Origin: an uncultured bacterium
GTDB taxonomy: Bacteria > Cyanobacteriota > Vampirovibrionia > Gastranaerophilales > Gastranaerophilaceae
DNA: 64,000 nucleotides
Assembly: GCA_948684385.1 (NCBI GenBank)
Contig: CAPQCU010000001.1
Location: 244,545-308,544, forward strand
Reading direction: 5' to 3'
A model generated the notes under the pieces. That model had not been told where the DNA came from, searched no databases, and saw only the letters and a list, made by a program, of their open reading frames with translations. Positions 31,293 to 63,327 of this stretch are shown piece by piece. The translations under genes and the position numbers were made by a program. The first letter of the stretch is position 1. Each line of letters starts with the position of its first letter.

Positions 31293-31325
31293 CTTTTTTA
31301 TAATTCAACCTGTATAGGATTAATT

Positions 31326-37190: not shown

Positions 37191-38741
37191 TTAGTTTAGA
37201 ATTTCAAAATTATTATCTAATTGTTGTGGTAATAAAAAATTAAATCGTTTTTCAAATTCTGACAGGCTTGCATATCCTAAATTCTTTGAAATTATATTAA
37301 TTTGAATACCTTTGTTTACGAGAAGATGAATATGTGTGTTTAAAAGTAAATCATAATCTTCAATATCTATGTTATTAAAGATTCTACCGGTTTTATTATT
37401 GGGAATATTTTTAAAAAGTATTTGAGGGATCCTCAAATCTCTGTTTTTGTATAATGTTCTGTGTTTTATGATTGTATTATTCACTATAGCTTTATTTATT
37501 TTTACAACTCTGCGTTCAAAATCTATATCGGTATATTCTAATGCAGCAAGCTCTGCCGGAGTTATACCTAAACATATTATCCATAATTTTTCCAACTGAT
37601 TTTTTATTATATTTTTAATATCCTTATCCGTTAAAATTTTAGTTTCTAACATTGGAAGTAAAGTATTATTAGCACTAAAATGAAAATCAATATTGCAATC
37701 CCCATATTCTAACATAATTAAACGCAATAAATTTGTAAATCTTTTAATGCTTGATGGAGTAAATCCTTCTGCAATTTTGTAACTTTGATAATTTTGCAAT
37801 ACTTGAGGAGTAATGTCTTTAAACTTATAGTTTTTAAAATAAGGTAGTAAATGATTCTTTAAGTAACCTTTTCTAGATATATCAAATTCGTTTTTGCTTT
37901 TTTCGATACTTTTTAGGTAAACTCTAGCTCCTTGTATAAAATTTTCATATTTTATTTCATTCTTGTTTTTAATCTCTTTATAATTACTAGTAGTCGTAGG
38001 ATGATTAATTTCTGCTAAATTTAATGGTAAATTCCTCAGTTTATCAATTACTTCTTTTGAATATTCTTTATCTAGCCTTCTTTTAAAAGCTGCAGGATGG
38101 GGTAATATCTCATATTTTTTCTTTAGCATCTTCACACATTGGCTTAATGTATATTTATAACTTGTAAAATATAGACTTTTAAAATCTTCAAACATTTCAT
38201 CTGTGACAGAACTTTTATGATTATCATTCTTATACAAAGGAATTAAACCTTTTATTCCATAGGTTACATAATCTCTTCGTTTTCTCATTAATGTTGAATA
38301 TGAAACTTTATATTCAGGAGTATCTTTACCTAATTGCTTTAAAAATTTATAAAGCCTTATTCCATTAAGATTTCCTGCTAATTTTAAAACAGTCATATGT
38401 TTTATAATTTTAGCCTTCGCCCAGTCAGGAGTATTGTTAAAGATTTCTTGCTCGTTTTCTTTCTTAAAGAGCTGTTTTGTATTTATTGTTTTAAAATCTA
38501 TATTAACTTTTTTGATTTTTTTATCACTCTTATTTTCTATAATTGCAGTCAAAGCGGACTTTTCTTTGTTTTGTGCTATATAACCATATTCTTTGTCAGA
38601 TATTTTTTTGATAATTCCATCATCTTCAAAATTATCTATTACCGGTACTAAAGCTTTTTCATCATATTCCGACATTATTGCAATGTCATCAATTGTAAAT
38701 CTGCTAAGACGTTTGATTAGTTTCAAAATTTTCTGTTTCAT
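37191..38741 (-). CDS. wHTH plus degenerate tyrosine-recombinase-fold protein (candidate third transposition subunit)
   Basis: 516 aa. Integrase SAM-like region (YLKNHLLPYFKNYKFKDITPQVLQNYQSY). The C-terminal catalytic-domain-like region has R-I replaced (GITPAEL), HxLRH replaced (THIHLLV), and Y replaced by F (KRFNFL). Confidence 0.65.
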   Translation of the reverse strand: MKQKILKLIKRLSRFTIDDIAIMSEYDEKALVPVIDNFEDDGIIKKISDKEYGYIAQNKEKSALTAIIENKSDKKIKKVNIDFKTINTKQLFKKENEQEIFNNTPDWAKAKIIKHMTVLKLAGNLNGIRLYKFLKQLGKDTPEYKVSYSTLMRKRRDYVTYGIKGLIPLYKNDNHKSSVTDEMFEDFKSLYFTSYKYTLSQCVKMLKKKYEILPHPAAFKRRLDKEYSKEVIDKLRNLPLNLAEINHPTTTSNYKEIKNKNEIKYENFIQGARVYLKSIEKSKNEFDISRKGYLKNHLLPYFKNYKFKDITPQVLQNYQSYKIAEGFTPSSIKRFTNLLRLIMLEYGDCNIDFHFSANNTLLPMLETKILTDKDIKNIIKNQLEKLWIICLGITPAELAALEYTDIDFERRVVKINKAIVNNTIIKHRTLYKNRDLRIPQILFKNIPNNKTGRIFNNIDIEDYDLLLNTHIHLLVNKGIQINIISKNLGYASLSEFEKRFNFLLPQQLDNNFEILN

Positions 38742-39423
38742 TTATTACAATCTCCTTTAACATAATTTCATCTATTGAAGTCAAACCATTTGCATTAGCA
38801 ATAGCTTCAGCTTTATTAATAATTTTTACTAGTTGGCGGAATCTATTAATATTTGAATTTACATACCTTAATGCACAATCAGTAAAAGCGACTTCACTTA
38901 ACTCTTTAATAATTTCAGCAATATCTTGTTTAGAAAAAGGTTCAAATTTAACAATTTCTGAAAGTCTGTCGTATAAATGCTTATACCTTTTTAATCTAGA
39001 TTTAGCATTAGTCATTCCAACTAAAATAATTGGAATATTTGTTTTATCATGTATATCTCGAAGGGTTTCAACAATTTTGGTATCAATTGTTAAATAATCA
39101 ATTTCATCAATTATTAGTATTTGAGGGTTGGTTATCAAATTTTTGATAATAAGATTAAAACAATCAGAGATTCTACTACTAGCTATTTCCCCCATTTCAT
39201 CTAGAATTTCAGTCAACAGCCATCTAGCAGACATCAATTGAGTACAGCGGACTAAAATAGCATCATTCTTTAAAGCCCACCAGTTAATTGTTTGTGTTTT
39301 TCCTAGACCAGGCTCTCCATATACAAGAGCCATTCCTGGAACACCCTCTGCTCTATTTTGTAAATTACCTACCATTGATATAAACTGTTTTACATTTTTT
39401 GTCTTTACAAAAACTTTTCTCAC
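38704..39423 (-). CDS. AAA+ transposition ATPase (TniB/MuB/TnsC-like)
   Basis: Walker A GEPGLGKT and Walker B ILIIDEIDYL. GTG start after GGAGGTAAAC. Confidence 0.8.
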   Translation of the reverse strand: MRKVFVKTKNVKQFISMVGNLQNRAEGVPGMALVYGEPGLGKTQTINWWALKNDAILVRCTQLMSARWLLTEILDEMGEIASSRISDCFNLIIKNLITNPQILIIDEIDYLTIDTKIVETLRDIHDKTNIPIILVGMTNAKSRLKRYKHLYDRLSEIVKFEPFSKQDIAEIIKELSEVAFTDCALRYVNSNINRFRQLVKIINKAEAIANANGLTSIDEIMLKEIVINETENFETNQTS

Positions 39424-39435: not shown

Positions 39436-41517
39436 TTATGAATAAATTTCTTTAAATTCGCTTGATTGAATATAATTTGTCAACCAAGTTCGGTCATCAT
39501 TGGTTATGCAACCATTTTGCATATGCCACTCATATCTTTCGTAGCTTGTTGTAAAAATTGGACGAGCAACAATTGAGGTCTTGATTTTTGGTATAATTTT
39601 TTGCTCTTTTGGAACAACAGGTTTTACTGGTTCATTTGGAATTTTGATTTCATTGACCATTTTTGATTCAATCAATGGAATATCGTCTAAACTGAAATGT
39701 TCCTTGATGGCTTTTATGGTTTTACGTCTTAACTTGGCTTGTTTTTCAATCTTTTGTTTGTAATCTTCAATATCTTTAATATCACCCATCTGTGCAGCAA
39801 GTGGATGCGTTTCTGTAACACGATTAGCCTTACAAATAAATTCCCCTTTTAAGGTATAAACTTTGATATAGCTTAAATCAAATAAACTATATTTAATTAT
39901 TGCTTTTTCTTTAATACCATATAATTCTTCATCAAAATAATCTGCTTTTAAAAACCTAATACCATTCCTGCCAATGGTCTTAACCTCTTGTGCCATCATT
40001 AAATCGTCTAAATTTTTCTCATCAATGTTTTGCTTTTTAACTTCATCTAAAACTTCTTTAACGGTTTTCCCTTCAGCATTTGTACAAGGTTGAGAGTGCT
40101 TGTATTCTAACCATTTATTTATTAATGCAATAGCTTGTTCTATCGTTGGAGTGAATTCATATTTTTCATGCATTGCTTTGTGCAATTTTTCATTTCTTTT
40201 CATCCAAGCCGGCTTATTCTCTATACTTGTTCCAATATAGCTCGGCATCAATTTTTCAAACCCTTCTTGAAAATCCAAAAAGAAACGTTCTATTACTTTT
40301 GCTCTAGCATTGTACGGTGTTGCATATACAGGTTTTATTCCTAATTTTTCGTAAACACCTGTAAATCCTAACTCTTCAAACTTTTTATCTCCATTAAAAA
40401 ATTTAGATTTAAAAGCTCTGCCATTATCTTGATATACAAACTCCGGAATATGATCCATATTTAAAATGGCATTTCTTAAGGCTGAAGCGATATTTTGAGT
40501 ACATTCTTCAAGCATAATATCATATCCCACAAGACCGCCGGATTTCCAATCCAAGAATCCCAATAAAGTTGCCCTACAAGGTTTGCCTGTAAATGGATTT
40601 ATAACTTGGAAATTTAGGGTATGTCCATCAGCTATTAGAACTTGTCCGGGTTTTAATAGAGAAGCATTTCTTACTATATATGGTTCTACTTTATCTTTTA
40701 GTGCTTTTTGTCCTTCTCGCGCTAATGTCCATTTATCTAAATTAAAATCTCGAAACCAATATGCATATCTTCTAAAAGTTATATCTTTAGGAAGTATTTC
40801 GTATCCTCTCTCCATTAATATATGTTTTGTCAGGCTAATGGATTTGCCTATAGAAAAATTATTCGGAGATAAAAGTATTTTTAAGAATATTTTTATTTGT
40901 TCATCGTTTAATGTTGTATTATATTCTTTTCTTGTTGAATATTTATATTGACCAACTAAAGCTGTCCAGTCATTTTTGTATCCTAATGTTCTTCTCCATC
41001 TATATAATGAACCTACGGAAACTTTACCGAGAATTTTAAAGATTTCTTCATGTAAAAAACCTGTGTTATATAATTGAATAAATTTGAAATCAATATTTTC
41101 TTTATTATTAGATTTGAATTGATTATTTTTCTTTTCCCTTTTTTCATTATTTCTAAAATCAATCCAACTTCTCACAATATCATATTTGGCTAGTGCCATT
41201 CTCTTTTGATTTTCTGATATTAATTTTTCTTGTTTGATTTCAAAATTATTTAATTCAATTATTTCATTGTCTATATGTTTAAAATCATCATAATATTCTT
41301 GTATATATTTAATTTGGTACTCTTCTTCTAAAGTCGACAGTTTAATTTTATATGTTTTGCCACCTCTGACATTTTCTACCTTATATTCATATTTATTTTG
41401 ATTGAGTGAAAGACGAACTCCTCTTTTTGTAATACCTTTAAGTTTTGCAACGGTTTCAACATCTACCCAAGTTTGAGTTCTGTCTATATTATTTAATATG
41501 TTATTATTATCCGACAT
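39436..41517 (-). CDS. Mu/TnsB/TniA-family DDE transposase
   Basis: 693 aa. DDE triad (LIADGHTLNF, VYQDNGRAFKS, YNARAKVIERFF) and the TIGRNGI barrel motif. RBS AGGAGATTAC. Confidence 0.85.
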   Translation of the reverse strand: MSDNNNILNNIDRTQTWVDVETVAKLKGITKRGVRLSLNQNKYEYKVENVRGGKTYKIKLSTLEEEYQIKYIQEYYDDFKHIDNEIIELNNFEIKQEKLISENQKRMALAKYDIVRSWIDFRNNEKREKKNNQFKSNNKENIDFKFIQLYNTGFLHEEIFKILGKVSVGSLYRWRRTLGYKNDWTALVGQYKYSTRKEYNTTLNDEQIKIFLKILLSPNNFSIGKSISLTKHILMERGYEILPKDITFRRYAYWFRDFNLDKWTLAREGQKALKDKVEPYIVRNASLLKPGQVLIADGHTLNFQVINPFTGKPCRATLLGFLDWKSGGLVGYDIMLEECTQNIASALRNAILNMDHIPEFVYQDNGRAFKSKFFNGDKKFEELGFTGVYEKLGIKPVYATPYNARAKVIERFFLDFQEGFEKLMPSYIGTSIENKPAWMKRNEKLHKAMHEKYEFTPTIEQAIALINKWLEYKHSQPCTNAEGKTVKEVLDEVKKQNIDEKNLDDLMMAQEVKTIGRNGIRFLKADYFDEELYGIKEKAIIKYSLFDLSYIKVYTLKGEFICKANRVTETHPLAAQMGDIKDIEDYKQKIEKQAKLRRKTIKAIKEHFSLDDIPLIESKMVNEIKIPNEPVKPVVPKEQKIIPKIKTSIVARPIFTTSYERYEWHMQNGCITNDDRTWLTNYIQSSEFKEIYS

Positions 41518-49735: not shown

Positions 49736-49804
49736 TTTTAATTCCTTTTATTTTATTATAAGTCTTCTATGCGACAAATATGGTCGCATGTCAACTTTAA
49801 ATTA

Positions 49805-50260
49805 TCATGAAACTATGTTTTGTGTATTTTTTATTTTTTCTAAAAATTTTTTATAATCATCTAGTAAAAATTCGTAAGAAAGATTAAAATCCCAATCTCG
49901 AATTGTTCTAAAATGGTTCCAGATTACACTTGTTCCGGTATTTATAACTAATACTCTTGCTGAGGCACAGCCGACTTCACCACATGTACAACAAAGGACA
50001 GCGGCTTCCAACTTTCCATTAGATTGTTCTGCTTCTTTTAATTCTTCATAAAGTTCTGATGGGATCATATAAATATAATCTCCTGCAATAAAATCTTTTA
50101 AATCTGGCTCTTTTTCTGCAAAAACTTTTTCCGCATCAGCAATTATTTCTAAAAGTTCTTTCCCATTAATTAATATTTTACATCTGTTCCATTTATCTGG
50201 GAAAATGAAATCTCTATCATTTTCTTCAATTATCAATTCTAACTTATCATATTTTTTCAT
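49805..50260 (-). CDS. hypothetical protein (immunity-protein-like size and composition)
   Basis: 151-aa acidic ORF with a CCTCGEVGC motif. Confidence 0.45.
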   Translation of the reverse strand: MKKYDKLELIIEENDRDFIFPDKWNRCKILINGKELLEIIADAEKVFAEKEPDLKDFIAGDYIYMIPSELYEELKEAEQSNGKLEAAVLCCTCGEVGCASARVLVINTGTSVIWNHFRTIRDWDFNLSYEFLLDDYKKFLEKIKNTQNIVS

Positions 50261-50310: not shown

Positions 50311-51168
50311 TTATTTAAACTCTTTTTCATGTAATTTAAAAAAGTTATAATAAATTTGGACATTTTTAAGTTCTGTCCAAGGTTTTATTTTTACAGGATT
50401 TTCATCAAAATCATATATTTTTGCATCTTTTAACGACAATAAAAATGGCGAGTGCGTTGCTATAATAAATTGGCAATTATAAAATCTGACACTATCTTGA
50501 AGAAAACTCAATAATTCTTGTTGTTTTTCCGGAGATAAACTATTTTCCGGCTCATCTAAAAGATACAACGCATTTTCTTTGATTTTATCCGTAAAATAAA
50601 TGAAAGCACTTTCACCATTTGAATGTTCTCGAACATTTTTCTGTGATTTTTGTTTTATATAACCAGATTTACTTATTTTCCTAATTGCAGATATTCTCTT
50701 ATATTCATCGTAATCACTCAATGATTTGAATTGAAATCCTGATTCTTTTAATTTATTGTATTCATCGGCAAGTTCTTCTCTTCGGCTGTCTATTCCTTGG
50801 TTTATATGTCTTAAATTCATTGTAAATTCAAACACATCATCACTGGTGATTATACCACTCTGAAAAGGAATTTTCGTATTTTTTGACGAACAATAGTTTA
50901 AATATTCATCAAAAAAACTACTTTTGTTATATAAAGTGTTTCTTTTTATTTGCAACTTTTCAGCAATAATATTTAATGCTGTTGTTTTCCCGCAGCCATT
51001 GCCACCATAAAATATAGTTATTGGCGCAAATTCAATTGTCTCAATTTTATGCTGAGATAAAATACAAAACGGATATTTTGTTTCATACAAATAAACGCCA
51101 ACATCCCAAGGACGAAAATCAAAGTCCCTGGTAAAACTTGCAAAATTAAATTTTTCTAAATATATCAT
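50311..51168 (-). CDS. stand-alone ABC-type (AAA_21-like) ATPase
   Basis: Walker A GGNGCGKT, signature-like SNGES, Walker B LYLLDEPENSLSP and H-loop ATHSP. Confidence 0.75.
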   Translation of the reverse strand: MIYLEKFNFASFTRDFDFRPWDVGVYLYETKYPFCILSQHKIETIEFAPITIFYGGNGCGKTTALNIIAEKLQIKRNTLYNKSSFFDEYLNYCSSKNTKIPFQSGIITSDDVFEFTMNLRHINQGIDSRREELADEYNKLKESGFQFKSLSDYDEYKRISAIRKISKSGYIKQKSQKNVREHSNGESAFIYFTDKIKENALYLLDEPENSLSPEKQQELLSFLQDSVRFYNCQFIIATHSPFLLSLKDAKIYDFDENPVKIKPWTELKNVQIYYNFFKLHEKEFK

Positions 51169-51279
51169 AATGACACCTTACTTTTTAGCATTATTACATG
51201 GTTATAATAATTTACCTTTACGACAGAAATGGACATGCTATAAAAATAATGTTAAAATAAATTTCAAAAGGAAAGATTT

Positions 51280-52242
51280 ATGTCCGATAAACCAAGATAT
51301 TCACGAGTTTCTGATATTTTAGATTTGGCAATATTTATGTCATCAAAAATTCAAGGGGTAACAATTACAGAAATAGCAGAAAGATACAATGTTTCCAGAA
51401 GAACTGCCGAACGTATGAGAGATAGTTTGACTTGTATTTTCCCGTCTGTTGATGAAATTGAAACTAATGACACGCAAAAACACTGGGGATTTATAAATTA
51501 TTCAATCAACCAACTAATTACATTTACCCCCAAAGAAATTGCTAATATTGAACAATGTGCAAGAAGAACAACAAACAAAGAAATGAAAGAGGAACTTTCA
51601 AAAACTGTTGAAAAACTTAAAACTTTTAATAAAAAACATGCTATGCCGATTGAGAAAAACATTGAACTATTTATGCAGACGGAAGGCTATGCGGTAAGGC
51701 AAATGCCCCAATATAAAATTAGTATGGAAACTCTTGAAATAATAAGAGATGCCGTTCAGCATTCAAAAATGGTGGAAGGGATTTATCACGATAAAAATCG
51801 TACAATTGAACCACTAGGTATGATTTATGGAGAAAAGATTTATCTTGTTGCAAGAGAAAAAGCTAAAGGAGACGGAATTTATAACTACTTGTTGCATAAA
51901 TTTCAAGATTTGAAGCTTACTGATAAAACCTTTGATAAAGGTGAGTTTAATTTGCAAGAATATACAAACCAATCTTTCGGAGTTTACCACGGTGATATTC
52001 TTGATGTTGAATTGTTGTTTTCTCCTGAGATTGCAGAGGAAGCAAGTCAATTCAACTTTCATCCAACACAAAGCGGAAAATATAATAATGACGGAACTTA
52101 TACAGTAACCTTTAAGGCAAGCGGAAGTTTGGAAATCCTATGGCACGTATTCAAATGGGGCAGTTGCTGTAAAATTATTGCACCAAAATCCTTAAAAGAT
52201 GAGTATAAAAAGTATTTGGAAGATAGTTTAAAGAATTATTAG
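51280..52242 (+). CDS. WYL-domain transcriptional regulator (HTH-WYL-WCX)
   Basis: N-terminal wHTH (VTITEIAERYNVSRRTAERMRDSL), WYL core (IEPLGMIYGEKIYLVAREK...YNYLLHKFQDLKL) and a C-terminal WCX-like region (ILWHVFKWGSCCKIIAPKSL). Confidence 0.8.
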   Translation: MSDKPRYSRVSDILDLAIFMSSKIQGVTITEIAERYNVSRRTAERMRDSLTCIFPSVDEIETNDTQKHWGFINYSINQLITFTPKEIANIEQCARRTTNKEMKEELSKTVEKLKTFNKKHAMPIEKNIELFMQTEGYAVRQMPQYKISMETLEIIRDAVQHSKMVEGIYHDKNRTIEPLGMIYGEKIYLVAREKAKGDGIYNYLLHKFQDLKLTDKTFDKGEFNLQEYTNQSFGVYHGDILDVELLFSPEIAEEASQFNFHPTQSGKYNNDGTYTVTFKASGSLEILWHVFKWGSCCKIIAPKSLKDEYKKYLEDSLKNY

Positions 52243-52287
52243 TTACCGGTTTTGTTGTGCTTTATACTAGTAGATGGGTAAATAGTG

Positions 52288-52323
52288 CTATAACATATTT
52301 ATTACAATATAAATATGTTATAG
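52288..52323. promoter_or_regulatory. 14-bp perfect inverted repeat (candidate WYL-regulator operator) just upstream of an extended -10 promoter
   Basis: CTATAACATATTTA-N8-TAAATATGTTATAG. TGATATAAT follows at 52345-52353, 18 nt before the ATG at 52371. Confidence 0.5.
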
Positions 52324-52370
52324 ATTAAAAATTTAAAATATTCATGATATAATTTTTCGCAGAGGGAAGT

Positions 52371-53543
52371 ATGTGTATTCCTACATCAGAAAATCCAAAT
52401 AGTTATTTTGGGTATGTAATACAAACTCCTAGAGCGTTACATTACCTTCTTGAAGGTGCAAAAATAGTATCAGTTGAAAGCAAAGATGATATATCTGCGA
52501 TAGGCTCTGATGATAAACTGATTGTTGTAGAACAAATTAAAGATAAAAATACAAATTTTTCAAATTGTTCTGAAGATTTCTGGTGTACATTTGCAAATTG
52601 GATCAATCGGTATAAAGAAAATAAAGATAAATTTACTAATAGGACACAATTTGTAATTTTTTCGAATAGAAAACAACAATTAAAAAAAGATTATTTTATT
52701 GACTTATGTAATAATGCTCAAAATGACGAAGAAAGTAAAAAATGTATTGCAACAATAAAAGATACTTTTTCTTCAACAAATTTAAAAATAAAACAATGTT
52801 TTAATGTATTTATTGATGAACAAAATAAGGATGTTGTTATAAATATAATTAGGAATTTCTCGTACCAAGTTCCAAATGGAGGCATTTTTGAAGATGTTAA
52901 AAATAAAATCCAAGAACTACATTCTGAAAACAGAAATACCGAAGAACTAAGAATGAAAATGCTTGGTTGGATAAATGAAAAAATTTATGATAAAGAAAAT
53001 GATAAGATAAGAAAATTTGATTTATCACAAGCTGATTTTAGAAATTATTTAGATAATAATAAAAATTTAAAACTAGCACTTATTGATGATGTATCAGAAT
53101 TTGATTTAGAAGAAGCTCATAAACAATATTTTTATCGTCAACTTGGTTTAATAGAAAGAGGAGAAGAGTTAAAACGACTTGATTGCAGAGATTATTATAG
53201 ATGGTTGGTAACTAGAGCAAAAGAAGAAGAAAAAGGGAAATTTACAAAAAAAGAATTTGATGAAATGTACCGAGCTGTTTATGAAAAATGGCTTGAGGAT
53301 CGTGAATATTTATTTTCTATAAATAGTATAGAAAATGATATTAATAAAGGAAAACGATTATATAATTGTAGCATAGAAAATAAATCTATAAAAATAGGTA
53401 ATACATCTTTTGATGATTCACCTCAAGAAGTTGCTAGAGGAATATGTAATTTTTTGGCTAATGATAATTCAGAAACACAAAATTACAGTATAGGTTGGCA
53501 TCCAGATTATAAAAGATTGTTAAATGAGGTGGATAATGACTAA
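52371..53543 (+). CDS. ABC-3C-type effector component: N-terminal REase (Mrr-like PD-(D/E)xK) fold plus a helical C-terminal domain
   Basis: 390 aa. VESKDDISAIGSDDKLIVVEQIKDK fits a D...(E/Q)xK nuclease core. First gene of a translationally coupled triad that ends in a DUF3732-type ATPase. Confidence 0.55.
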   Translation: MCIPTSENPNSYFGYVIQTPRALHYLLEGAKIVSVESKDDISAIGSDDKLIVVEQIKDKNTNFSNCSEDFWCTFANWINRYKENKDKFTNRTQFVIFSNRKQQLKKDYFIDLCNNAQNDEESKKCIATIKDTFSSTNLKIKQCFNVFIDEQNKDVVINIIRNFSYQVPNGGIFEDVKNKIQELHSENRNTEELRMKMLGWINEKIYDKENDKIRKFDLSQADFRNYLDNNKNLKLALIDDVSEFDLEEAHKQYFYRQLGLIERGEELKRLDCRDYYRWLVTRAKEEEKGKFTKKEFDEMYRAVYEKWLEDREYLFSINSIENDINKGKRLYNCSIENKSIKIGNTSFDDSPQEVARGICNFLANDNSETQNYSIGWHPDYKRLLNEVDND

Positions 53544-54030
53544 TATATATAGTAAGTATTGTACAAGTATGCAGAATCACGGCCTAGGCTCATTTTCAAT
53601 AGTCGCTTTTATAAGTGGATATCATTCTATTCATAATAAATATCCAAATTGGTTTGATATTTTTCTTGTACTACCAATGGTTATGAATGAACAGGTAAGA
53701 GAATTAATTAAAAAATCTGCCGGACGAGGTGGTGCTACAACAATAGAAACTTTAATATCAAGTAAGATATTAAATAAAAAGGAAAAATATGGAGCTTTTC
53801 ATAATCTCATTGATTCTTTTAAAGAATATACTCTAACTTGTATAATATTTGGATTGAGGACTAAATTAATATCACGCATAAATAATATTGAATTCAAAAG
53901 TAATATATTATTTGAAAAAGAAAAATATAATAACAATATATTTTTAGCATCTTACAAGTTAGGTGAATTGTATGCAAATGATAAAAACGCTTTTATGAAA
54001 CTAATTAATTCAACAGGAGTAAATTTATAA
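53536..54030 (+). CDS. ABC-3C-type middle component (small helical protein)
   Basis: About 164 aa. ATG overlaps the upstream stop (ATGACTAA) and its own stop overlaps the next start (TAATG). Confidence 0.5.
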   Translation: MTNIYSKYCTSMQNHGLGSFSIVAFISGYHSIHNKYPNWFDIFLVLPMVMNEQVRELIKKSAGRGGATTIETLISSKILNKKEKYGAFHNLIDSFKEYTLTCIIFGLRTKLISRINNIEFKSNILFEKEKYNNNIFLASYKLGELYANDKNAFMKLINSTGVNL

Positions 54031-56033
54031 TGAATGTACAACTGCAACAATTTGGAATATACTCAAAAGATTTAAAAGAACATAAATTTATTTCTTTTCA
54101 AAAAGGAAAATTAAATATCATACATGGTGCTTCTCAAACAGGAAAATCTGCAATTATTCCTATTATAGATTACTGCTTATGTTCCTCTCATAATAGAATC
54201 CCTAAAGGGATAATATCAAATAGCTGTGGAGCTTATGCTATAAATTTATCAATTGATGATAAAAATCTATTAATTAAAAGGTTTTCAGGAGAAAAGTGTA
54301 AAATTATTCATTATGCATTAGTATCAAAAAATCTTGAAGATATTGAAGAGAACGAATGGCTAACTACTGATACCGATAAGTTTAAAATTTATCTTAACAA
54401 TTTGTTTGGAGTCTCATTTTCCGAAATCATGGATTCTAAAGATAATAATAAAGGTAATCCTAGTTTTAGAGATCTTATTGCATTCAATTTCCAATCTCAA
54501 AGTATTGTGGCTAATCCCAATTGTTTATTATATAAAATGGATCTTGCCGAATATCGTTTTTACTTAAAAAGAATTTTTGACTATGCTATTGGAGCTATGA
54601 CCTCTGAACAATTATATGCAGGTTTGAAGAAACAAGAACTAATGGAAAAATTAAAAGAACTGCAAAGACAAAAAAATAGACATGAAGCATATATACAAAG
54701 AAAAATAGAAGCAGCAGAACCTTTGTTATACAAAGCAATTGAATATGGTTTAATCTCTCAAACAGAAATAAATATTTCAGATACTGTAAGTATTGAAATT
54801 TTATTAAAGCAAATATCTGAAAAAAATATAGGAGATATTCAATTTAGTGATGAAGCAAATGAAATAATAGCAACTAAAGTTCAAAATTTAATTAGTCAAT
54901 TGGATTCTTTGCATTTTGAAGTTCGTGCACTTAAACAAGAAAGAAATAATATAGAAGAATTATTAGGTATTGAAGAGCAAAACAAAGAACAACTAACTGA
55001 AAAATGTTCCCGTTTAGAAATAGCCGAATTTATAAGAGATTTTTGTAAAGCTAACTCTTCTGATACTATGGTGATAAATGATGTTGAAAATTTATATAAT
55101 AATCTAAAAATTGTACAAGACAAATTAATTGATACAAACATCTTTGGAAAAGGCGTATATGAAGCAAAACTAAATCGGATAAGAAAGCAAATAAATGAAA
55201 AGACTGAAAAAATAAATATTTTATCAAAAAATAAAGATCTTTTGGAAGAAAAAGTTGGAACTCAATCCCTTATTCAAGATTTATATGTAAAAATTATAGG
55301 TGGTGCACAAAAAATAATTAATGAAATATCAGAAAAAAATGATATAGAACAACAAATTGAAGAATTAAATAGTGAAATTGCCAAATATGATTTTGATATA
55401 GATGAACTAAGACAAAAACAATTAATATCTATTGTTAATAAATCTAATAGTTATGTGCCAAATTTTGCCGAGTTTGAAGAAATAGCCTCTTTTTCTAAAG
55501 AAGATTTAACAGTAAAAGTAAAAAATAAAAACACATCAGAATCATATTTTTTATGGGAAACTGGTAGTGGTTCTAACTGGGTTGCTTACCATATTGCAAC
55601 AATGTTAGGTCTTCATAAACACTTTATATATAAGAAAACTCCAGTTTTTAATTTTATTATCTTTGACCAACCAAGCCAAGTATATTTCCCTAAAGTTAAT
55701 TATCAACATACAAAAGATTTTGATTTTGATAACGAGAAAAAATCTAGCAATATTGATAAAGGATTTTCAGATCTTGAATGCGTTCAAGAAATGTTCAAAA
55801 TTATGAGTAAAGCAATAAACGATAATAAACCGAAAAATCTTGTTGTTAAAGTTGATGCGGATGGAACTGAACATAAAATAGAAGAAATATTTGATAGCAA
55901 CTTGCAAATAATAGTATTGGATCATGCAGGACCTGATGTATGGAAAAATTCAGAAGATATAAATAACATTAATCCTTTAGAAGAATGGACATTAGAGAAT
56001 AGATTAGTCCCTAATAATTGGATTTCTAAGTAA
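54030..56033 (+). CDS. DUF3732-like coiled-coil ABC ATPase (ABC-3C ATPase component)
   Basis: 667 aa. Walker A GASQTGKS at aa 33-40, a roughly 300-aa E/K/L/I-rich coiled-coil insert, then SGSNWVAYHIA, Walker B/Q region IIFDQPSQVYFP, and VLDHAG. Confidence 0.7.
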   Translation: MNVQLQQFGIYSKDLKEHKFISFQKGKLNIIHGASQTGKSAIIPIIDYCLCSSHNRIPKGIISNSCGAYAINLSIDDKNLLIKRFSGEKCKIIHYALVSKNLEDIEENEWLTTDTDKFKIYLNNLFGVSFSEIMDSKDNNKGNPSFRDLIAFNFQSQSIVANPNCLLYKMDLAEYRFYLKRIFDYAIGAMTSEQLYAGLKKQELMEKLKELQRQKNRHEAYIQRKIEAAEPLLYKAIEYGLISQTEINISDTVSIEILLKQISEKNIGDIQFSDEANEIIATKVQNLISQLDSLHFEVRALKQERNNIEELLGIEEQNKEQLTEKCSRLEIAEFIRDFCKANSSDTMVINDVENLYNNLKIVQDKLIDTNIFGKGVYEAKLNRIRKQINEKTEKINILSKNKDLLEEKVGTQSLIQDLYVKIIGGAQKIINEISEKNDIEQQIEELNSEIAKYDFDIDELRQKQLISIVNKSNSYVPNFAEFEEIASFSKEDLTVKVKNKNTSESYFLWETGSGSNWVAYHIATMLGLHKHFIYKKTPVFNFIIFDQPSQVYFPKVNYQHTKDFDFDNEKKSSNIDKGFSDLECVQEMFKIMSKAINDNKPKNLVVKVDADGTEHKIEEIFDSNLQIIVLDHAGPDVWKNSEDINNINPLEEWTLENRLVPNNWISK

Positions 56034-56101: not shown

Positions 56102-56905
56102 ATGCAAAAGTTTTATGAAAAAGACGATATAACTTTATTTCAGGGTGATTGTATTGAAATTTTAAATCGAGCAACTCCTGACTCTATTGATATGATTTTT
56201 GCGGATCCACCGTATATGCTTTCTAACGGTGGAATAACCTGTCAATCCGGCAAGGTTGTTTCCGTTAACAAAGGAAAGTGGGATGAAAGCAAAGGCTTGG
56301 ACGAAGATTTTGAATTTCATCAAAAATGGATTAACGCTTGTAAAAGAGTTTTAAAACCCAACGGTACAATTTGGATATCAGGTACATATCATTCAATCTA
56401 TGCATGCGGTTTTGCTTTACAAAAAGCAGGTTTTAAAATTCTGAATGATATCTGCTGGTTTAAGCCTAACGCTTCTCCAAATATGAGTTGCAGATATTTT
56501 ACGGCAAGTCACGAAACTTTATTATGGGCAAGAAAAGACCCGAAAGGTAAACATACTTTCAATTACGAAGCAATGAAAAATGGTGATTGGGGCGATGATA
56601 TTCTGAAAAAGCCAAACAAGCAGATGCGTTCAGTATGGCAAATAGATACTCCAAAACCATCGGAAAAAGAATTTGGCAAACATCCGACTCAAAAACCTTT
56701 AGAATTGTTAAGGCGCATAATCCTTGCATCGACTAACAAAGGCGATTTAATTCTCGATCCATTCACAGGAAGCTCAACTACTGGTATAATGGCATTAGAG
56801 TTCGGCAGAAAATTTATTGGAATAGACTTGGAAAAAGAATACTTAGACCTTTCGGTTAAAAGGTTTGAACAGGTATTTTCAAAGAAAGATAAAGCATGGC
56901 AGTAG
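56102..56905 (+). CDS. DpnA-like beta-class N6-adenine DNA methyltransferase
   Basis: DMIFADPPYMLSNGG, GTIWISG, SCRYFTASHETLLWARK, GKHPTQKP and ILDPFTGSSTTG. Close to my memory of S. pneumoniae DpnA. Confidence 0.85.
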   Translation: MQKFYEKDDITLFQGDCIEILNRATPDSIDMIFADPPYMLSNGGITCQSGKVVSVNKGKWDESKGLDEDFEFHQKWINACKRVLKPNGTIWISGTYHSIYACGFALQKAGFKILNDICWFKPNASPNMSCRYFTASHETLLWARKDPKGKHTFNYEAMKNGDWGDDILKKPNKQMRSVWQIDTPKPSEKEFGKHPTQKPLELLRRIILASTNKGDLILDPFTGSSTTGIMALEFGRKFIGIDLEKEYLDLSVKRFEQVFSKKDKAWQ

Positions 56906-57735
56906 TTTTAGAACAATTAAAAAGCGAAACATATCCAATTGTGAAATGGGTTGGCGGAAAACGTCAGCTTATGTTTGAGTTGCTAAAAAACATGCCAAAA
57001 TCATACAATCGCTATTTTGAGCCTTTTATTGGCGGAGGTGCTCTATTCTTTGAATTGCAACCTGAAAATGCTTATATTTCCGATATGAATGAAGAATTGA
57101 TTAACCTTTATACAGTTGTCAGAGATAATGTTTATGAACTTATTGATGATTTAAGCAAACACGAAGTTTCAAAAGAATATTTTTTAGAGATTCGTAATAT
57201 TGATAGAACTGAAAAATATGCTGAATTATCAAATGTAGAAAGAGCAAGTCGTTTTATTTACTTGAATAGAACCTGTTTTAACGGAATGTATAGAGTAAAT
57301 TCGCAGGGGCAGTTTAATGTTCCGTTTGGACATTACAAAAATCCCCGTATCATTGATGAAAACAATCTTTTGAATTGCTCAGAACTATTAAAAAAAACAG
57401 AAATTAAATGTGCAGATTTTTCAGAAATTTTAACAAAGGTTAAAAAAGGTGATTTTGTTTATTTTGACCCACCTTATGTTCCATTGAATGAAACGTCTAG
57501 TTTTACTTCGTACACAAAAGACGGCTTTGATATCGATATGCAAATTAAACTGCGTGATGTTTGTGATGAATTGGATTCAATGGGTGTCAAGTTCATGCTT
57601 TCAAATTCAGACACTAAATTAGTAAAAGAATTATATGCAAATTATGAAATAAAAAAAGTTTTTGCTTCTCGTGCTATCAATGCAAATGCGGATGGGAGAG
57701 GCAAAATTACAGAAGTTTTAGTGAGGAATTATTAA
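56896..57735 (+). CDS. DpnM/Dam-like N6-adenine (GATC-type) DNA methyltransferase
   Basis: VKWVGGKRQL, YFEPFIGGGALFFEL, FNGMYRVNSQGQFNVPFG and FVYFDPPY. Confidence 0.85.
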   Translation: MAVVLEQLKSETYPIVKWVGGKRQLMFELLKNMPKSYNRYFEPFIGGGALFFELQPENAYISDMNEELINLYTVVRDNVYELIDDLSKHEVSKEYFLEIRNIDRTEKYAELSNVERASRFIYLNRTCFNGMYRVNSQGQFNVPFGHYKNPRIIDENNLLNCSELLKKTEIKCADFSEILTKVKKGDFVYFDPPYVPLNETSSFTSYTKDGFDIDMQIKLRDVCDELDSMGVKFMLSNSDTKLVKELYANYEIKKVFASRAINANADGRGKITEVLVRNY

Positions 57736-58223
57736 TGGAAGGGAAAGATTATCGACATACCGCCAGTTTTGGAAAACGTGCCGAATATTTTATAATTGCT
57801 CAAATGTTAAAAGAAGGCTTGGATTGTTATGTTCCATTAGTTGATGACGAGGGAATTGATGTTGTAGTCAAAAAAGATGATAAAACATTTGTAATGGTTC
57901 AAATAAAAGCTAGATCTAAATTTGTGAGAAATGGTGATGCTGCATTATTTGCCGGTTTACATCACGAACATCGGGATAATTATTTCTTTGTTTTCTACTC
58001 AGAAAGGATGCAAAAAGATACCGAAAAGCCATTTTACTGGATTTTATCTTCAGAAGAATTTTTAAATTTAGCTAGTACAAATAAAAAAGGAAAACATATT
58101 GGTTCTAAATGCGTATGGTTCAATGGATATAGAATAAACAAAAAGACCGGTAAAAAAGAAGAATATATTAAAGAACAATTCCAACAATATGTTTACACCG
58201 ATTTCAAAAAAATTATATCGTAA
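57735..58223 (+). CDS. small PD-(D/E)xK-fold protein embedded in the R-M operon
   Basis: 162 aa. GKRAEYFIIAQMLKEGLDCYVPLVDDEGIDVVV...VMVQIKAR fits an E...D...(Q)xK nuclease core. Its start overlaps the upstream stop (TAATG). Confidence 0.5.
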   Translation: MEGKDYRHTASFGKRAEYFIIAQMLKEGLDCYVPLVDDEGIDVVVKKDDKTFVMVQIKARSKFVRNGDAALFAGLHHEHRDNYFFVFYSERMQKDTEKPFYWILSSEEFLNLASTNKKGKHIGSKCVWFNGYRINKKTGKKEEYIKEQFQQYVYTDFKKIIS

Positions 58224-58240
58224 AGGAGTACCAAATATTT

Positions 58241-59098
58241 ATGTCAAGAGATTTTAAAGAGTGGCTATCTACATTTAGACCTTGTATTGCAGATTATTGC
58301 TACTATGTAGATTTTAATAAGGTAAACAAAAATGTTGATGATATAAAAGTTGAGCTCAATATTTTAAATTCACTAGTTGGTTCAAAAAGCATTGAAAAAG
58401 ACTTTGAAGATATTATCACTAAATATCCTGAAACTCTAAAATGTATTCCATTGCTTTTAGCTGTTCGTTCTAACGAAATTTCAGTTACAGATGCTAATGG
58501 CGAATACAATTTTTCTTTCAAGAAACAAAACTACAGTATAGATGATTATAAAATATTTATGAGAAAAACTAAGTTGTTTGATTTGCTTGAAAACCACATT
58601 GTAAGCAATTTAGTTGACTATGCAACCGGCGTAGAAACAGGATTAGACAGCAATGGTCGTAAAAATCGCGGCGGTCATTTGATGGAAAATCTTGTAGAAG
58701 ATTATATTCAAAAGGCAGGATTTATAAAGAGTGAAAACTATTTCAAAGAAATGTATATTCACGAAATTGAAGAAAAATGGGGTGTTACTCTTTCTGCAAT
58801 TTCAAATCAAGGCAAAATGGAAAAACGTTTTGATTTTGTGATTAAAACAGCCAATCAAATTTATGTAATTGAAACAAATTTCTATTCAAGTGGCGGTTCA
58901 AAACTCAATGAGACGGCTAGAAGTTATAAAACTTTAGCACAAGAGGTTGCAACAATAGATGGTGTAACTTTTATTTGGTTTACTGACGGCTGCGGTTGGA
59001 ATAGTGCAAGAAACAATCTTGAAGAAACTTTTGATGTTTTAGATACTGTTTATAATATTCGGGATTTAGAAGATGGAGTATTAAAGAATTTATTATAA
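58241..59098 (+). CDS. DpnII/MboI-family type II restriction endonuclease (GATC)
   Basis: NLVDYATGVETGLDSNGRKNRGG, FDFVIKT...YVIETNFYSSGGSKLNETARSY and WFTDGCGW match the DpnII/MboI signature blocks as I recall them. Confidence 0.85.
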   Translation: MSRDFKEWLSTFRPCIADYCYYVDFNKVNKNVDDIKVELNILNSLVGSKSIEKDFEDIITKYPETLKCIPLLLAVRSNEISVTDANGEYNFSFKKQNYSIDDYKIFMRKTKLFDLLENHIVSNLVDYATGVETGLDSNGRKNRGGHLMENLVEDYIQKAGFIKSENYFKEMYIHEIEEKWGVTLSAISNQGKMEKRFDFVIKTANQIYVIETNFYSSGGSKLNETARSYKTLAQEVATIDGVTFIWFTDGCGWNSARNNLEETFDVLDTVYNIRDLEDGVLKNLL

Positions 59099-60394: not shown

Positions 60395-60805
60395 TCAAAA
60401 ATCAAAATTCCATTCTTCGTCATCATTGAACAAATCTTCTTCGGTATCTTGTTTTTTGATAGCAATATTGAGTAATTCTTCTAAAGTTAGTTTTTTAGTT
60501 TTTGGTTTAACCATTTCTTCAGTTATGTTTAGAAATTTATTCAGTCTTGAAACATCGATTTGCTGGTTATTTACCAAATCTTCATTAAAGTCATCAAGCA
60601 TTTGGCGAACTAATTGGTACATATCGTAATTAGTCAATGTTTGTTTATTCAAGTATTCTTTTCGCTTTTCACCCCAATTCCCTTCTGCTTTCCATCGACG
60701 AACAGTCCTGTCGCTTATTCCAAGACGCTTTGCAACTCCGACTTCGGTTATAAACTGTTCAACGTACATTTTTTCTGCTTTATCAAAATATTTATTTTTC
60801 TTCAT
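60395..60805 (-). CDS. HTH protein (terminase-small-subunit-like / DUF1804-like)
   Basis: VGVAKRLGISDRTVRRWKAEGNWGEKR, with an acidic C-terminal tail. Overlaps the transposase stop by 4 nt. Confidence 0.5.
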   Translation of the reverse strand: MKKNKYFDKAEKMYVEQFITEVGVAKRLGISDRTVRRWKAEGNWGEKRKEYLNKQTLTNYDMYQLVRQMLDDFNEDLVNNQQIDVSRLNKFLNITEEMVKPKTKKLTLEELLNIAIKKQDTEEDLFNDDEEWNFDF

Positions 60806-62791
60806 AAAGCCTTCGTCCTCATTGCTTCCATTTCAATTCGCTCTTTTTCCAAAATTTTATCAGTTTCAAACAAATACAATTTTTCTTCCGGCTTTTTATC
60901 TTCTAAAAATACAGATAAATCCTGTCTATCAAATGCTTCCATCTCTTTGTTTTTCTGAATAGCTTTATCCATATTGGTATTGGCAATTTTTGAAATTTTA
61001 ATACTCTTTTTGAAATTTTTATTAGTAGAATCGTAAGCAGCTTTATAATTTTCATATTGTTCTTCAAGCGAAATTTCACGAGATTGTTTGATATAAGCCT
61101 TTGTAATTTTCAGATTCCGTTTTTTTATAGATAGTGCTTCTTTAAATTCCTCTTTTGATACTTTATCTGCGTGTAACGCCGCAACCGCTTTAACAGCTTT
61201 GACTGTTCCGACAAACTCATCATTATCTGCCTTAAAAGCCCACGCTTCTTTGTAATCCTGAACCTCCCGACGAAGATATACTTTCAAACCTGTTCTTGTA
61301 ATCATCCAGTCTGCCCAGTAAGTAATACCGAGTTGCCTGTCTTGAATACCGTTTCGCCCAATTGTAAAATTACGGGAAGTCCTCATACAAAATAGTTTCA
61401 AAGCATCGCGTGACGGTGTAATTTTTTCTGCGTACTCATTGTAAAATAATTCGTCAGGACAGATTCCGTTTAGATTTTTACCGTTTGAAGGCTTTTTATT
61501 TAAAACATTCAGGATAAAATCATCAAATATTTTCTTAAAATCTTCAAATTGCATAATTTTACCTGCTTTAATTTCTTTTGTCAGTTTTTTAGGGCGTTCA
61601 ACGACATTTCCGCCGCGATAACCTACGCAATGTTTTGAGAGCAATTCTTTAATCTTTAGAAAATCTCTTTCAACAGGTTTTGTTTGAGCATTATATGGAA
61701 GTGCAAAATGTACATTAACATTCAATTCCTTTAGCATTGCAGAAGTTTGACCTTTGCTGATATCAATCTTAAAATTTGACCTGCCGCCCGCAAAATCCTT
61801 TGAGCGGTAATCTTTCCCGTTGTCAATAATCACATCTTTTGGCAAACCAAATTTTTGTGCTGCATAATAAAAAGACTGAAAAATAAAATCAGAATTTGGA
61901 TTTTTTGTTTGCAAAATCCAACCGAGCCATTTACCGGATTTGTAATCTCGCCAAACCGTAACCCAAGGGAAAACGACTTTTCCATCTGAGTCAAAACAAG
62001 CAACATCAATCTGTGCGTGATCTGATACCCAAACTTCATTACAGGTTATATTTGAGTAATCTCTATCTATATACCCGCCATACTTTCTATTCCAAGCAGA
62101 TTGACCATATCGTGCCAAATAAATCCCCTGTTTCGGAATCTCTTTATCAAGCCTGCGTTTGAATGCCATAAAACTTGGAAAAGTTTCTCTATCTGCGTTA
62201 AATTCTCTTATTGCATAGCCCAAAGTCAAATCCCAACAAGTTCTTAGAGATGGTGCCCCTTCAACTAAATATAGGGTTTTAAAATATTCAAAATAATCAT
62301 CTTGGACTGAACTTCCTCTTAAATGTTGTCCGTGTCTTGATAGCAATCCGTTTAAACCATATCTGAAATATCTTCTTCGCATTTTTATAACGGATGAGTA
62401 AGAAGTTGGTTCATTTGATTCGTTCCATTCTTCAATAAATTGCTTTAAATCGTTGCCTTTTAGTCTGATATTTCGTTCGCAAATTAAATAATGCCGTTAC
62501 AATATCGACTCTTGCTAATGCGTTTAATTTTGCGTTCTCTGAAATAAAGTTCACTTTATTTTCTACAGGAATTAAAGCTGTTGATTTAATTCCTTCATTT
62601 TCAAGTTTCTCTTGAATTTCAGATTCTAAACTTGAATACAAAACCTCATAAGAAGTTCCGCCATTAACTTTAACTTCCCGAGCTATGTATTTTCCTTTTT
62701 GAATAGCAATCCTAATCGAACGGGTACTTTTTAACCCTTTTGCTTCTGCGATTCGTTTAATATCTATGTAGTGTTCGTTCATCGTACACAC
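60802..62791 (-). pseudogene. Mu-family DDE transposase split by a +1 frame change
   Basis: The 62432-62791 ORF is the HTH N-terminus. The 60802-62382 ORF carries the DDE core (WVSDHAQIDV, IIDNGKDYRS, NAQTKPVERDF, TIGRNGI). The frames overlap around the A4 run (minus strand) at 62458-62461. Confidence 0.75.
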
Positions 62792-62809: not shown

Positions 62810-63100
62810 CCACAATGGAACACCATTTCCGAGCTTTATGTTGTTTTGTGTTGAGAAAATCTATTTCCGACCTTTGAGCAAAAATTACCGACCTCAAAAT
62901 AAATTTGAAATTACTCACATAGTCCTCAAAAGTCAAATAATCATTTTACCCGTACAATTTAGTAAAATCGGGGAAATGCAGGACTGTAATTAGGTTTTTA
63001 AAACAAAACATTGGAAATTTGAGCCCAATTTTGATACTCAAAAGAGACTTTTGAGTAATTTGCGTAACGCATAAAACGATTATTTCCGACAGCCTAAACT
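62810..63100 (-). repeat. right-end repeat array (GTCGG(A/T)A sites on the minus strand, CTCAAAA repeats)
   Basis: TTCCGAC at 62865 and 63084, TTACCGAC at 62885, AATGGAACACCATTTCC at 62814, palindrome TACTCAAAAG-AGA-CTTTTGAGTA near 63045. Confidence 0.55.
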
Positions 63101-63220: not shown

Positions 63221-63256
63221 AAAAAACGGAACACATATTCTTGTGTTCCGTTTTTT
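63221..63256 (-). terminator. bidirectional hairpin terminator downstream of the tRNA
   Basis: AAAAAA-CGGAACACA-TATTCT-TGTGTTCCG-TTTTTT. Confidence 0.8.
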
Positions 63257-63327
63257 GGGCCCGGAGGGATTCGAACCCACGACCAAAGGATTATGAGTCC
63301 TCTGCGCTACCGCTGCGCCACAGGCCC
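63256..63327 (-). tRNA. tRNA with CAT anticodon (elongator Met, or Ile2 if lysidinylated)
   Basis: Reverse complement: GGGCCTGTGGCGCAGCGGTAGCGCAGAGGACTCATAATCCTTTGGTCGTGGGTTCGAATCCCTCCGGGCCCA. Cloverleaf with a 7-bp acceptor stem, CTCATAA anticodon loop and GGTTCGAAT T-loop. Confidence 0.9.

Follow-up and report, generated by a model that had tools for sequence, protein, structure and literature searches.

The ATP-binding cassette (ABC) three-component systems, ABC-3C, are the type II family of Lamassu (10.1101/2025.06.23.660979). Here we compare with this family a set of three genes, lmuA, lmuC and lmuB, that lies downstream of a gene for a WYL-domain protein in a 64,000-nt stretch of DNA, which we call the window, from a gut Melainabacteria-like metagenome-assembled genome (MAG). 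Several members of the family defend against phages or plasmids via abortive infection, and defence is lost in Walker A/ATPase, nuclease/effector, and lmuC mutants (10.1101/2022.05.11.491447). In the Lamassu complexes solved by cryo-electron microscopy (cryo-EM), an LmuA1B2C1 complex sequesters monomeric LmuA via the LmuA C-terminal domain (10.1101/2025.04.02.646746 among other sources). Published Lamassu work has further found that LmuB and LmuC bind double-stranded DNA (dsDNA) ends in vitro and a phage replication origin in vivo, and that freed LmuA is a tetramer in which paired nuclease domains leave 1-nt 3' overhangs with weak sequence preference.

Two described systems are closest to the genes in the window. 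DdmABC of Vibrio cholerae (Lamassu Vc-Cap4; PDB 9ny5, 9nxx, 9ny1, 9uxh) combines the CTD7 and MC3 Pfam signature with a Rad50-like ATPase and is activated by DNA damage, and relatives of the window operon are reported to be triggered by hairpin-forming palindromes (PMC11707656). The second is LmuACB of Salmonella enterica (PDB 9hqu, 9hqx, 9hr5). A subgroup, short Lamassu, is defined by the Walker A motif Gx4GK[ST], the Walker B motif hhhhD[Q/S/T/E], a signature motif, and a length of about 600 aa with a coiled-coil insert (10.1101/2025.04.02.646746).

A probable type II short Lamassu system

The three genes lie on one strand in the order effector, middle component, ATPase (Table 1). Base-level reading showed that the end of lmuA and the start of lmuC share 8 nt (ATGACTAA at 53536-53543) and that the lmuB start overlaps the lmuC stop (TAATG at 54028-54032). 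An alternative lmuC ATG at 53524 would give a protein of 168 aa instead of 164 aa; we preferred 53536 because of the upstream GAGGTGG Shine-Dalgarno sequence and the agreement with gene calls on identical public contigs. This reading and the motif positions given below agree with the original prediction, made from the sequence before our analysis, which had placed three translationally coupled same-strand genes with these overlaps and with ATPase and nuclease motifs, and a WYL gene upstream of them, at 51280-56033. A protein identical to that of the locus turned up in 59 index blocks of the collection, from which we read 24 contigs. Related loci and contigs that we compared with the window carry L-numbers; the Lamassu-bearing ones were found via an LmuB alignment, in which the closest named relatives were Candidatus Gastranaerophilales/Melainabacteria gut MAGs. 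The GC content of the region, 26-31%, agrees with this, and the host is probably one of the gut Melainabacteria (Gastranaerophilales-like).

Table 1. Coordinates of genes and sequence elements (window positions unless another contig is named)
Feature	Position	Strand	Description
WYL gene	51280-52242	+	320 aa; HTH-WYL-WCX
lmuA	52371-53543	+	390 aa; Lamassu effector
lmuC	53536-54030	+	164 aa; middle component MC3
lmuB	54030-56033	+	667 aa; SMC/Rad50-like ABC ATPase
DriD-type box	51219-51235	+	TACGAC-AGAAATG-GACA; in the WYL gene's own promoter, overlaps the -35 position
Inverted repeat	52288-52323	+	perfect, AT-rich, 36 nt (15-nt arms, 6-nt spacer); upstream of the lmuA promoter-like element; 0 expected by chance
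Putative lmuA promoter	52325-52353	+	TTAAAA-17 nt-TATAAT with TG extended -10; consensus scan; AGAGGGAAG Shine-Dalgarno follows, then lmuA
Second DriD-type palindrome	49770-49788	-	TGCGAC-CATATTT-GTCGCA; before 521-aa WG_beta_rep gene
Second DriD-type box, L015	L015 2303-2319		before 93-aa gene
Second DriD-type box, L010	L010 7637-7653		before 195-aa gene
DpnII-type restriction-modification cassette	56102-59098		N6/N4 methyltransferase, Dam/D12-type methyltransferase, DpnII endonuclease; downstream of Lamassu
Small helix-turn-helix (HTH) gene	60395-60805		
TnsB/TniA-like genes	17618-19624; 39436-41517		
IrrE/M78+HTH protein	19956-21026		
D12 methyltransferase	21964-23151		second restriction-modification system
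TdeIII-like endonuclease	23160-24011		second restriction-modification system
N6_N4 methyltransferase	23995-24753		second restriction-modification system
TniB-like genes	27986-28555; 38704-39423		
Large serine recombinase	31227-33164		

The original prediction had classed the triad as ABC-3C. We found matches to all three of the Pfam families named for this class, DUF3732 in LmuB (3.7e-33), MC3 in LmuC (9.2e-13) and CTD7 in LmuA (residues 254-383, E 6.5e-8), and the triad is therefore an ABC-3C system; DUF3732 has been renamed LmuB_C in newer Pfam releases. Each protein also matched its PADLOC profile over the full length, LmuA at 1e-25, LmuC at 2.2e-8 and LmuB at 7.6e-85. When compared with the sequences of the PDB, all three proteins matched the cryo-EM entries of Salmonella LmuACB and V. 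cholerae LmuABC/DdmABC. LmuB matched 9hqu_A (Salmonella) at 1.9e-56 over residues 12-665 and 9ny5_D (Vibrio) at 1.9e-55, LmuA matched a Lamassu LmuA at 6.7e-11, and LmuC matched the LmuC chain 9hqu_D at E 0.0095. These predicted family features of lmuA, lmuC and lmuB are far above chance.

LmuB carries every hallmark of short Lamassu. We located the Walker A motif GASQTGKS at residues 33-40, including K39, the signature motif SGSNW at 513-517, the hhhhDQ-type Walker B motif IIFDQ at 543-547 (within IIFDQPSQVYFP at 543-554), and the H-loop region VLDHAG at 629-634. In an AlphaFold2 (AF2) model with a mean predicted local distance difference test score (pLDDT) of 80, a helical/coiled-coil insert of about 280 residues (~192-473) separates two head halves. 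A Foldseek search with this model returned LmuB chains at 6e-29 to 3e-22, followed by structural maintenance of chromosomes (SMC) proteins, Rad50 and JetC. We also looked for a CxxC zinc hook in LmuB and none was present, which we did not count against membership because this feature varies within short Lamassu. The hhhhDQ Walker B motif and the size of LmuB, with the profile and fold matches, therefore place the system in the type II, short, Cap4-like-nuclease Lamassu.

The effector shows the same relationship. LmuA has about six close relatives. An exhaustive HMMER scan found full-length relatives (~390 aa) in 326 representative clusters, and from 100 of these we built a family alignment and profile. 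The profile matched LmuA of Salmonella (7e-123) and LmuA/DdmA of V. cholerae (2.6e-99), in both cases over the full length, and CTD7 was carried by all 100 relatives. In LmuA, a helical linker joins the predicted N-terminal Cap4-like PD-(D/E)xK nuclease to CTD7, the C-terminal ABC-3C domain for oligomerisation and sequestration. With the AF2 model of LmuA (pLDDT 92.5), Foldseek placed LmuA structures on top (~1e-18) and, directly after the LmuA chains, HerA-DUF4297 (9c1m, 3.8e-4) and Cap4 (6wam at 1.7e-3, 6vm6, 7yib). LmuA and LmuB thus both match solved Lamassu complexes at the level of fold.

Within the nuclease domain, the catalytic pattern consists of E36, D40 and Q55-x-K57, with E54-Q55-I56-K57 present; E36 and D40 were invariant, and K57 was at least 90% conserved, in the alignment of 100 relatives. 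By catalytic constellation and modelled fold the domain is predicted to be Cap4-like (DUF4297, PF14130) PD-(D/E)xK, and solved LmuA proteins of the same family are called Cap4-like in the literature (10.1101/2022.05.11.491447, 10.1101/2025.04.02.646746). An Mrr-like nuclease with a D...EQIK pattern had been proposed instead. D40 and EQIK are indeed present, and the proposal is right at the level of the superfamily only: Mrr_cat (PF04471) had no match in the window LmuA or in any of the 100 relatives and no Mrr structure was among the Foldseek matches of the LmuA model, and we rejected an Mrr-type identity.

We compared the window system with each of its described relatives. DdmABC shares with it the CTD7, MC3 and DUF3732 families and the order effector, middle component, ATPase. 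V. cholerae LmuA/DdmA has a Cap4-like nuclease with the catalytic lysine also at position 57, and V. cholerae LmuB likewise has no zinc hook and the hhhhDQ-type Walker B of short Lamassu. The two systems are about 18-25% identical, yet both the profile (2.6e-99) and the fold matches extend over the full length. They differ in host phylum, Vibrio as opposed to a gut Melainabacteria-like MAG, and in setting: DdmABC is quorum-regulated on VSP-2, whereas the window copy follows a DriD-like gene and lies near a DpnII restriction-modification (RM) system and a Tn7/Mu-like transposase. Salmonella LmuACB provided the best sequence match for the window LmuB, for LmuC, and for the LmuA family profile, and its LmuA has the same sequestration architecture with a C-terminal domain and the same Q-x-K nuclease motif. 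At the apex of its coiled coil, however, Salmonella LmuB bears a CPMC zinc hook, in contrast to the window LmuB, which has no CxxC. Type I Lamassu LmuAB of Bacillus (PDB 9ux7; Foldseek 5e-9) follows the same logic of an SMC-like sensor with a nuclease effector but is without LmuC, whereas the window has a clear MC3-type LmuC. Rad50-Mre11/SbcCD resembles LmuB in its split ABC ATPase, antiparallel coiled coil and DNA-end sensing (Foldseek 1e-8 to 1e-6), and Lamassu has been proposed to have evolved from SbcCD. LmuB, however, has no Mre11/SbcD phosphoesterase partner; its partners are LmuA (CTD7) and LmuC (MC3), and the output differs, repair for Rad50-Mre11/SbcCD compared with abortive DNA degradation for Lamassu.

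By analogy with these systems, we infer by homology the stoichiometry of the complex, its trigger, tetramerisation and defence phenotype. In the resting state, two LmuB protomers and one LmuC would bury the CTD7 domain of a single inactive LmuA monomer. LmuB and LmuC would then bind dsDNA ends or replication intermediates of an invading phage or plasmid and release LmuA, a step that should depend on the ATPase in vivo. Freed LmuA would tetramerise through its C-terminal domain, so that paired Cap4-like nuclease domains (E36, D40, Q55-x-K57) could cut DNA with little sequence specificity, and the cell would be killed or arrested and the infection aborted. The original prediction of an SMC/Rad50-like sensor that licenses a nuclease appears correct in this light, the nuclease being a putative PD-(D/E)xK enzyme.

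Several points weigh against this assignment. Identity to the characterised systems is low in structural alignments (17-20% for LmuA and 23-25% for LmuB), and because of this the trigger, cleavage preference and stoichiometry could differ. NCBIfam models match none of the three proteins. The window LmuA gives no match to Pfam Cap4_nuclease at E<=0.01, and 3 of the 100 relatives match that family weakly (best 1.2e-4). In addition, the promoter of lmuA is a consensus match only. Taking both sides together, we conclude, with a probability of roughly 0.87, that 52371-56033 is a complete, apparently functional type II short Lamassu (lmuA-lmuC-lmuB) of the DdmABC/LmuACB family, with a mechanism based on homology.

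The original prediction had also held that no phenotype or mechanism was available for the class and had offered the triad as an undescribed system. Published Lamassu defence phenotypes and cryo-EM mechanisms contradict the first point and, because ABC-3C is Lamassu, the triad is not an undescribed system. The locus is a divergent copy of a known, mechanistically characterised family in a new host.

The WYL gene encodes a DriD-like regulator

The gene immediately upstream had been read as a WYL regulator, and Pfam confirmed HTH (16-48), WYL (150-212) and WCX (241-315) domains in its product. This winged HTH-WYL-WCX order does not single out the defence regulators BrxR and CapW because it is common to DriD and PafBC too. 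We therefore relied on closer comparisons. Against all PDB chains, the protein matched the DriD chains 9pfq/8tp8 at 1e-41 over residues 5-313, with 32.6% identity over 307 aligned residues. BrxR and CapW crystal structures have been reported (PMC9122601, PMC9122588), but phmmer found neither at E<=10, only DriD-type WYL chains.

The residues by which DriD contacts double-stranded and single-stranded DNA (ssDNA) have been assigned (PMC10853764, PMC9186387). The recognition helix of the window protein, RRTAERMRD, is identical to that of DriD, and all of the base-reading residues R36, R37, T38, R41 and R43 are kept, as R40, R41, T42, R45 and R47. Of the nine ssDNA contacts (Y168, R176, R178, Y192, E197, R204, Y240, H241, R288), five are identical and R176 is conservatively replaced by lysine; the pocket is changed at R204 (to tyrosine) and R288 (to leucine), and Y168 is unaligned. 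More than 1100 relatives were found at E<=1e-20, and all 120 clusters listed were at least 81% identical; the gene is widespread in related gut MAGs. With these results, we conclude that the WYL protein is a predicted DriD-like transcription factor, and that its gene is conserved in the host lineage and adjoins the variable region in which the Lamassu cassette lies.

The predicted target sites support this view. DriD recognises the consensus box ATACGAC-N7-GTCGTAT and has a CGNC-N7-GNCG box in its own promoter (PMC10853764). In the window, a core CGAC-AGAAATG-GACA at 51221-51235, within the promoter of the WYL gene itself, has one mismatch to the CGNC-N7-GNCG motif, and the box is the only long conserved island in a region upstream of WYL that has otherwise diverged from L003. 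The same box is found in the WYL promoters of L003, L015, L010, L100-102, L104 and L107, each time with an 8-nt gap to TATAAT, and all seven core-motif matches in 1.3 Mb of fetched DNA fell at WYL-associated promoters. Caulobacter DriD (PDB 8tp8, 9pfq) likewise has a CGAC-N7-G(A/T)C(A/G)-type box at the -35 of its own promoter, in a different phylum, and the placement of the box over the -35 position resembles DriD-activated promoters (PMC13004042). Unlike in Caulobacter DriD, the box spacer in the window lineage is AT-rich and itself conserved (AAATATG).

At 51236-51258, the window promoter of the WYL gene has an insertion of about 10 nt compared with all other WYL promoters, which have the box, 8 nt, and TATAAT. 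The window box lies 17 nt from a TGnTAAAAT element, with its right half TGGACA at canonical -35 spacing.

Second boxes occur in the window, L015 and L010 (Table 1). They are near-perfect palindromes, each followed after 11 nt by a -10-like hexamer, and a -35 at the proper spacing is absent. The 521-aa window gene behind one of them is WG_beta_rep by precomputed annotation. Among genes beside DriD-like boxes in the window, L003, L010 and L015, PADLOC gave no matches and Pfam found only MORN repeats in one; these putative target genes are ORFans, not known DNA-damage genes. The boxes suggest a small DriD-like regulon in the Melainabacteria-like lineage, with a box nearly identical to the Caulobacter consensus. 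A motif scan found no DriD-type box in front of lmuA.

Lamassu occupies a cargo site beside the WYL gene

The left flank of the WYL gene is partly syntenic in related contigs (the 151-aa gene, the WG-repeat gene, and a 125-aa gene), and the cargo directly downstream of WYL varies. It consists of Lamassu and RM genes in the window, L003 and L015, a 644-aa AAA_15/21 ATPase in L104-107 (whose left flank is as in L003), an HTH/S24-peptidase cluster in L095-099 and L102, a 192-aa ORF followed by a NERD gene in L100 and L103, and a 205-aa ORF in L101. Among L095-L107, a HaeIII-type RM system is also present further downstream of WYL. Conversely, we examined 79 other genome loci with an LmuB relative (L016-L094), in most of which lmuA was detected too, and none had a homologue of the window WYL gene nearby. 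Of the LmuB clades, that at 89% identity or above is the only one with the gene upstream of lmuA; the clades at 57%, 54% and 37% do not have it there. L010 carries a WYL copy (85% identity) on the strand opposite to that of an unrelated Lamassu 4 kb away. The position after the WYL gene (window ~52270) is thus a predicted hotspot for variable cargo, and we conclude that the WYL-Lamassu adjacency probably reflects insertion into this hotspot beside a conserved regulator gene. We found no report of WYL and Lamassu coupling in the literature.

The boundary of the cargo also bears on how lmuACB is expressed. Loci with and without Lamassu cease to be homologous about 30 nt past the WYL stop, which assigns both the promoter-like site of lmuA and the 36-nt inverted repeat before it to the Lamassu cassette. 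All three relatives that bear Lamassu (window, L003, L015) have kept the promoter-like sequence, and lmuACB most likely uses this putative promoter of its own.

A further contribution from the WYL promoter is possible. Incidental co-option, in which the regulator senses ssDNA (from DNA damage or phage replication) and read-through from the autoregulated WYL promoter raises lmuACB above its own basal promoter, would be consistent with the DriD-type box at the -35 of the WYL promoter, as in DriD-activated promoters, and with the six of nine DriD ssDNA-contact residues that are kept or conservatively replaced. The 128-nt gap between the WYL stop and the lmuA start has no canonical terminator: folded as RNA, the 36-nt palindrome in it forms a hairpin of -15.5 kcal/mol with no U-tract, and for that reason is not a canonical one. 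Some WYL activators, DdaA among them (PMC12392091), increase the expression of defence genes when DNA is damaged, and DdmABC itself responds to such damage (PMC11707656). Against this, the hairpin could attenuate read-through, the spacing from box to -10 in the window is about 10 nt off that of all relatives, so the promoter may work differently, and the WYL-Lamassu adjacency is confined to one small clade. We consider read-through a tentative proposal that is somewhat doubtful.

A restriction-modification cassette and a transposase adjoin Lamassu

The DpnII-type RM cassette downstream of lmuB recurs beside Lamassu. The same cassette (84-98% amino-acid identity) adjoins three divergent Lamassu clades with LmuB identities of 89-100%, 54% and 36%; it follows Lamassu in one clade, whereas elsewhere it lies upstream in divergent orientation. 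Apart from the window, the linkage was seen in L003, L015, L007-L010, L016, L020 and L025. This raised the idea of a two-layer module, in which DpnII would cut unmethylated invader DNA and LmuB/LmuC would sense the dsDNA ends. The recurrence beside three clades in two orientations speaks for such coupling, but systems in defence islands often lie side by side without being functionally coupled, the pattern is explained equally well by a conserved RM anchor next to a hotspot where Lamassu alleles are exchanged, other Lamassu loci are without an RM system, and we found no report of such RM and Lamassu coupling in the literature. Functional coupling is therefore unlikely. The broader idea, that Lamassu is wired to both neighbours in a three-layer module on a Tn7/Mu-like element, with a DriD-like read-through boost and a DpnII-fed DNA-end sensor, receives equally little credence from us; if true, the three layers would sense damage, cut unmethylated DNA, and abort.

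Some variation was seen within the cassette. In L003, a MvaI_BcnI/MutH-like endonuclease replaces DpnII. In the window, a 162-aa ORF (57735-58223) with weak PD-(D/E)xK/Mrr_cat matches lies between the Dam-type methyltransferase and DpnII, and a homologue of it is absent from all related RM cassettes fetched.

A TnsB/Mu-like transposase gene follows the cassette in the window and in L015 (668 aa, 72% identity). The window copy appears disrupted into a 526-aa ORF (60802-62382) and a 119-aa ORF (62432-62791), compared with 651-668 aa in L002 and L015. Four ATT(T/A)CCGA(C/G) repeats lie at 62825-63090, near a tRNA-Met (CAT) gene at 63256-63327 that is preceded by a hairpin, and the 9-mer ATTTCCGAC clusters at this right end only. 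This arrangement likely marks the right end of a Tn7-like element that has a tRNA gene as its attachment site. We also searched for the other end. Terminal repeats bracketing Lamassu within 41.4-64 kb were only AT-rich, chance-level matches, and the predicted left boundary (52236-52330) had no inverted match to the right flank in the window or L015, so the left end of the mobile element is undefined. The original prediction of a defence island on a transposon is therefore plausible, with the TnsB-like gene and the Tn7-like right end by tRNA-Met in its favour and the missing left end against it. Most likely, Lamassu arrived together with the DpnII-type RM system and the Tn7/Mu-like transposase in the hotspot downstream of WYL.

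The palindrome upstream of lmuA is a poor candidate for a WYL operator

The original prediction had treated the WYL protein as a gate of the BrxR/CapW type. In its strongest form, the protein would be a dedicated repressor bound at an lmuA operator such as 52288-52323, and WYL and lmuACB would be one four-gene system. In favour of this, WYL and lmuACB share a strand and are separated by 128 nt in which no intrinsic terminator is predicted, the perfect 36-nt palindrome directly adjoins the -35 of the promoter-like site of lmuA, three loci (window, L003, L015) have WYL next to lmuACB, and WYL regulators are known to control defence operons (PMC9122601, PMC9122588). The palindrome, however, keeps 13-nt arms in L003 but is degraded in L015: by our count, pairing there is left at 9 of 13 arm positions, and no inverted repeat of at least 8 was reported. 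The protein matched DriD and no BrxR or CapW chain, and its identical DNA-reading helix predicts a CGNC-N7-GNCG box, not an all-AT palindrome. WYL further stands beside unrelated cargo in many genomes and is missing from the 79 other LmuB loci, and both palindrome and promoter came with the cassette. We rejected the palindrome as a conserved WYL operator on the grounds that it is degraded in L015, mismatched to the DriD-like helix, and on the cassette side of the homology break. A dedicated repressor is quite improbable, and gating of the BrxR/CapW type is not borne out. The resemblance of the palindrome to the hairpin-forming triggers reported for relatives of the operon is probably coincidence.

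That the locus is a decaying or non-defence relic, such as an SbcCD-like repair complex or an inactive remnant, is very improbable: the adjacent TnsB-like gene is indeed broken in the window, but the three ORFs are full length with all catalytic motifs intact, an identical protein recurs across the 59 index blocks, and the pairing of LmuA/CTD7 with MC3 is specific to Lamassu, not SbcCD.

Taken together, we conclude that the interpretation of the triad as ABC-3C is right, and that its novelty and its dedicated WYL gating are not supported.

Other genes in the window and in related loci

A 285-aa AAA_15/AAA_21 ABC ATPase gene (window 50311-51168, minus strand) is divergent from WYL and has PtuA/AriA/AbiL-like PADLOC matches. 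No homologue was found in related loci, and it is possibly a separately inserted defence-type gene. Next to it, the 151-aa gene at 49805-50260 is 67% identical to a conserved WYL neighbour in L100-103. Elsewhere, the window is a patchwork that includes further TnsB/TniB modules, a serine recombinase, and the second RM system (Table 1), with DUF4268 and DUF6551 also within 17618-41517. In the Lamassu clade at 54% identity (L007-L010), a conserved fourth gene of 408 aa stands right after lmuB in all four contexts (~8033-9259 in L007); it has no Pfam match and is absent from the window.

Significance of the locus

The practical value of these results lies in correct annotation: Lamassu (type II, short, Cap4-like nuclease) is the appropriate label for the locus, which should not be listed as an undescribed system. 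The variable cargo hotspot and the recurrent Lamassu-DpnII linkage could merit a small follow-up, as could the occurrence, far outside the Alphaproteobacteria, of a DriD-type regulator whose recognition helix is identical and whose box is conserved; the classification would be unchanged. We know of no defence system studied in gut Melainabacteria-like MAGs. The locus extends Lamassu, a well-studied defence family, into these genomes, and it does so with a divergent LmuACB, about 20% identical to the solved ones, in which every checked catalytic and ATPase motif is kept.

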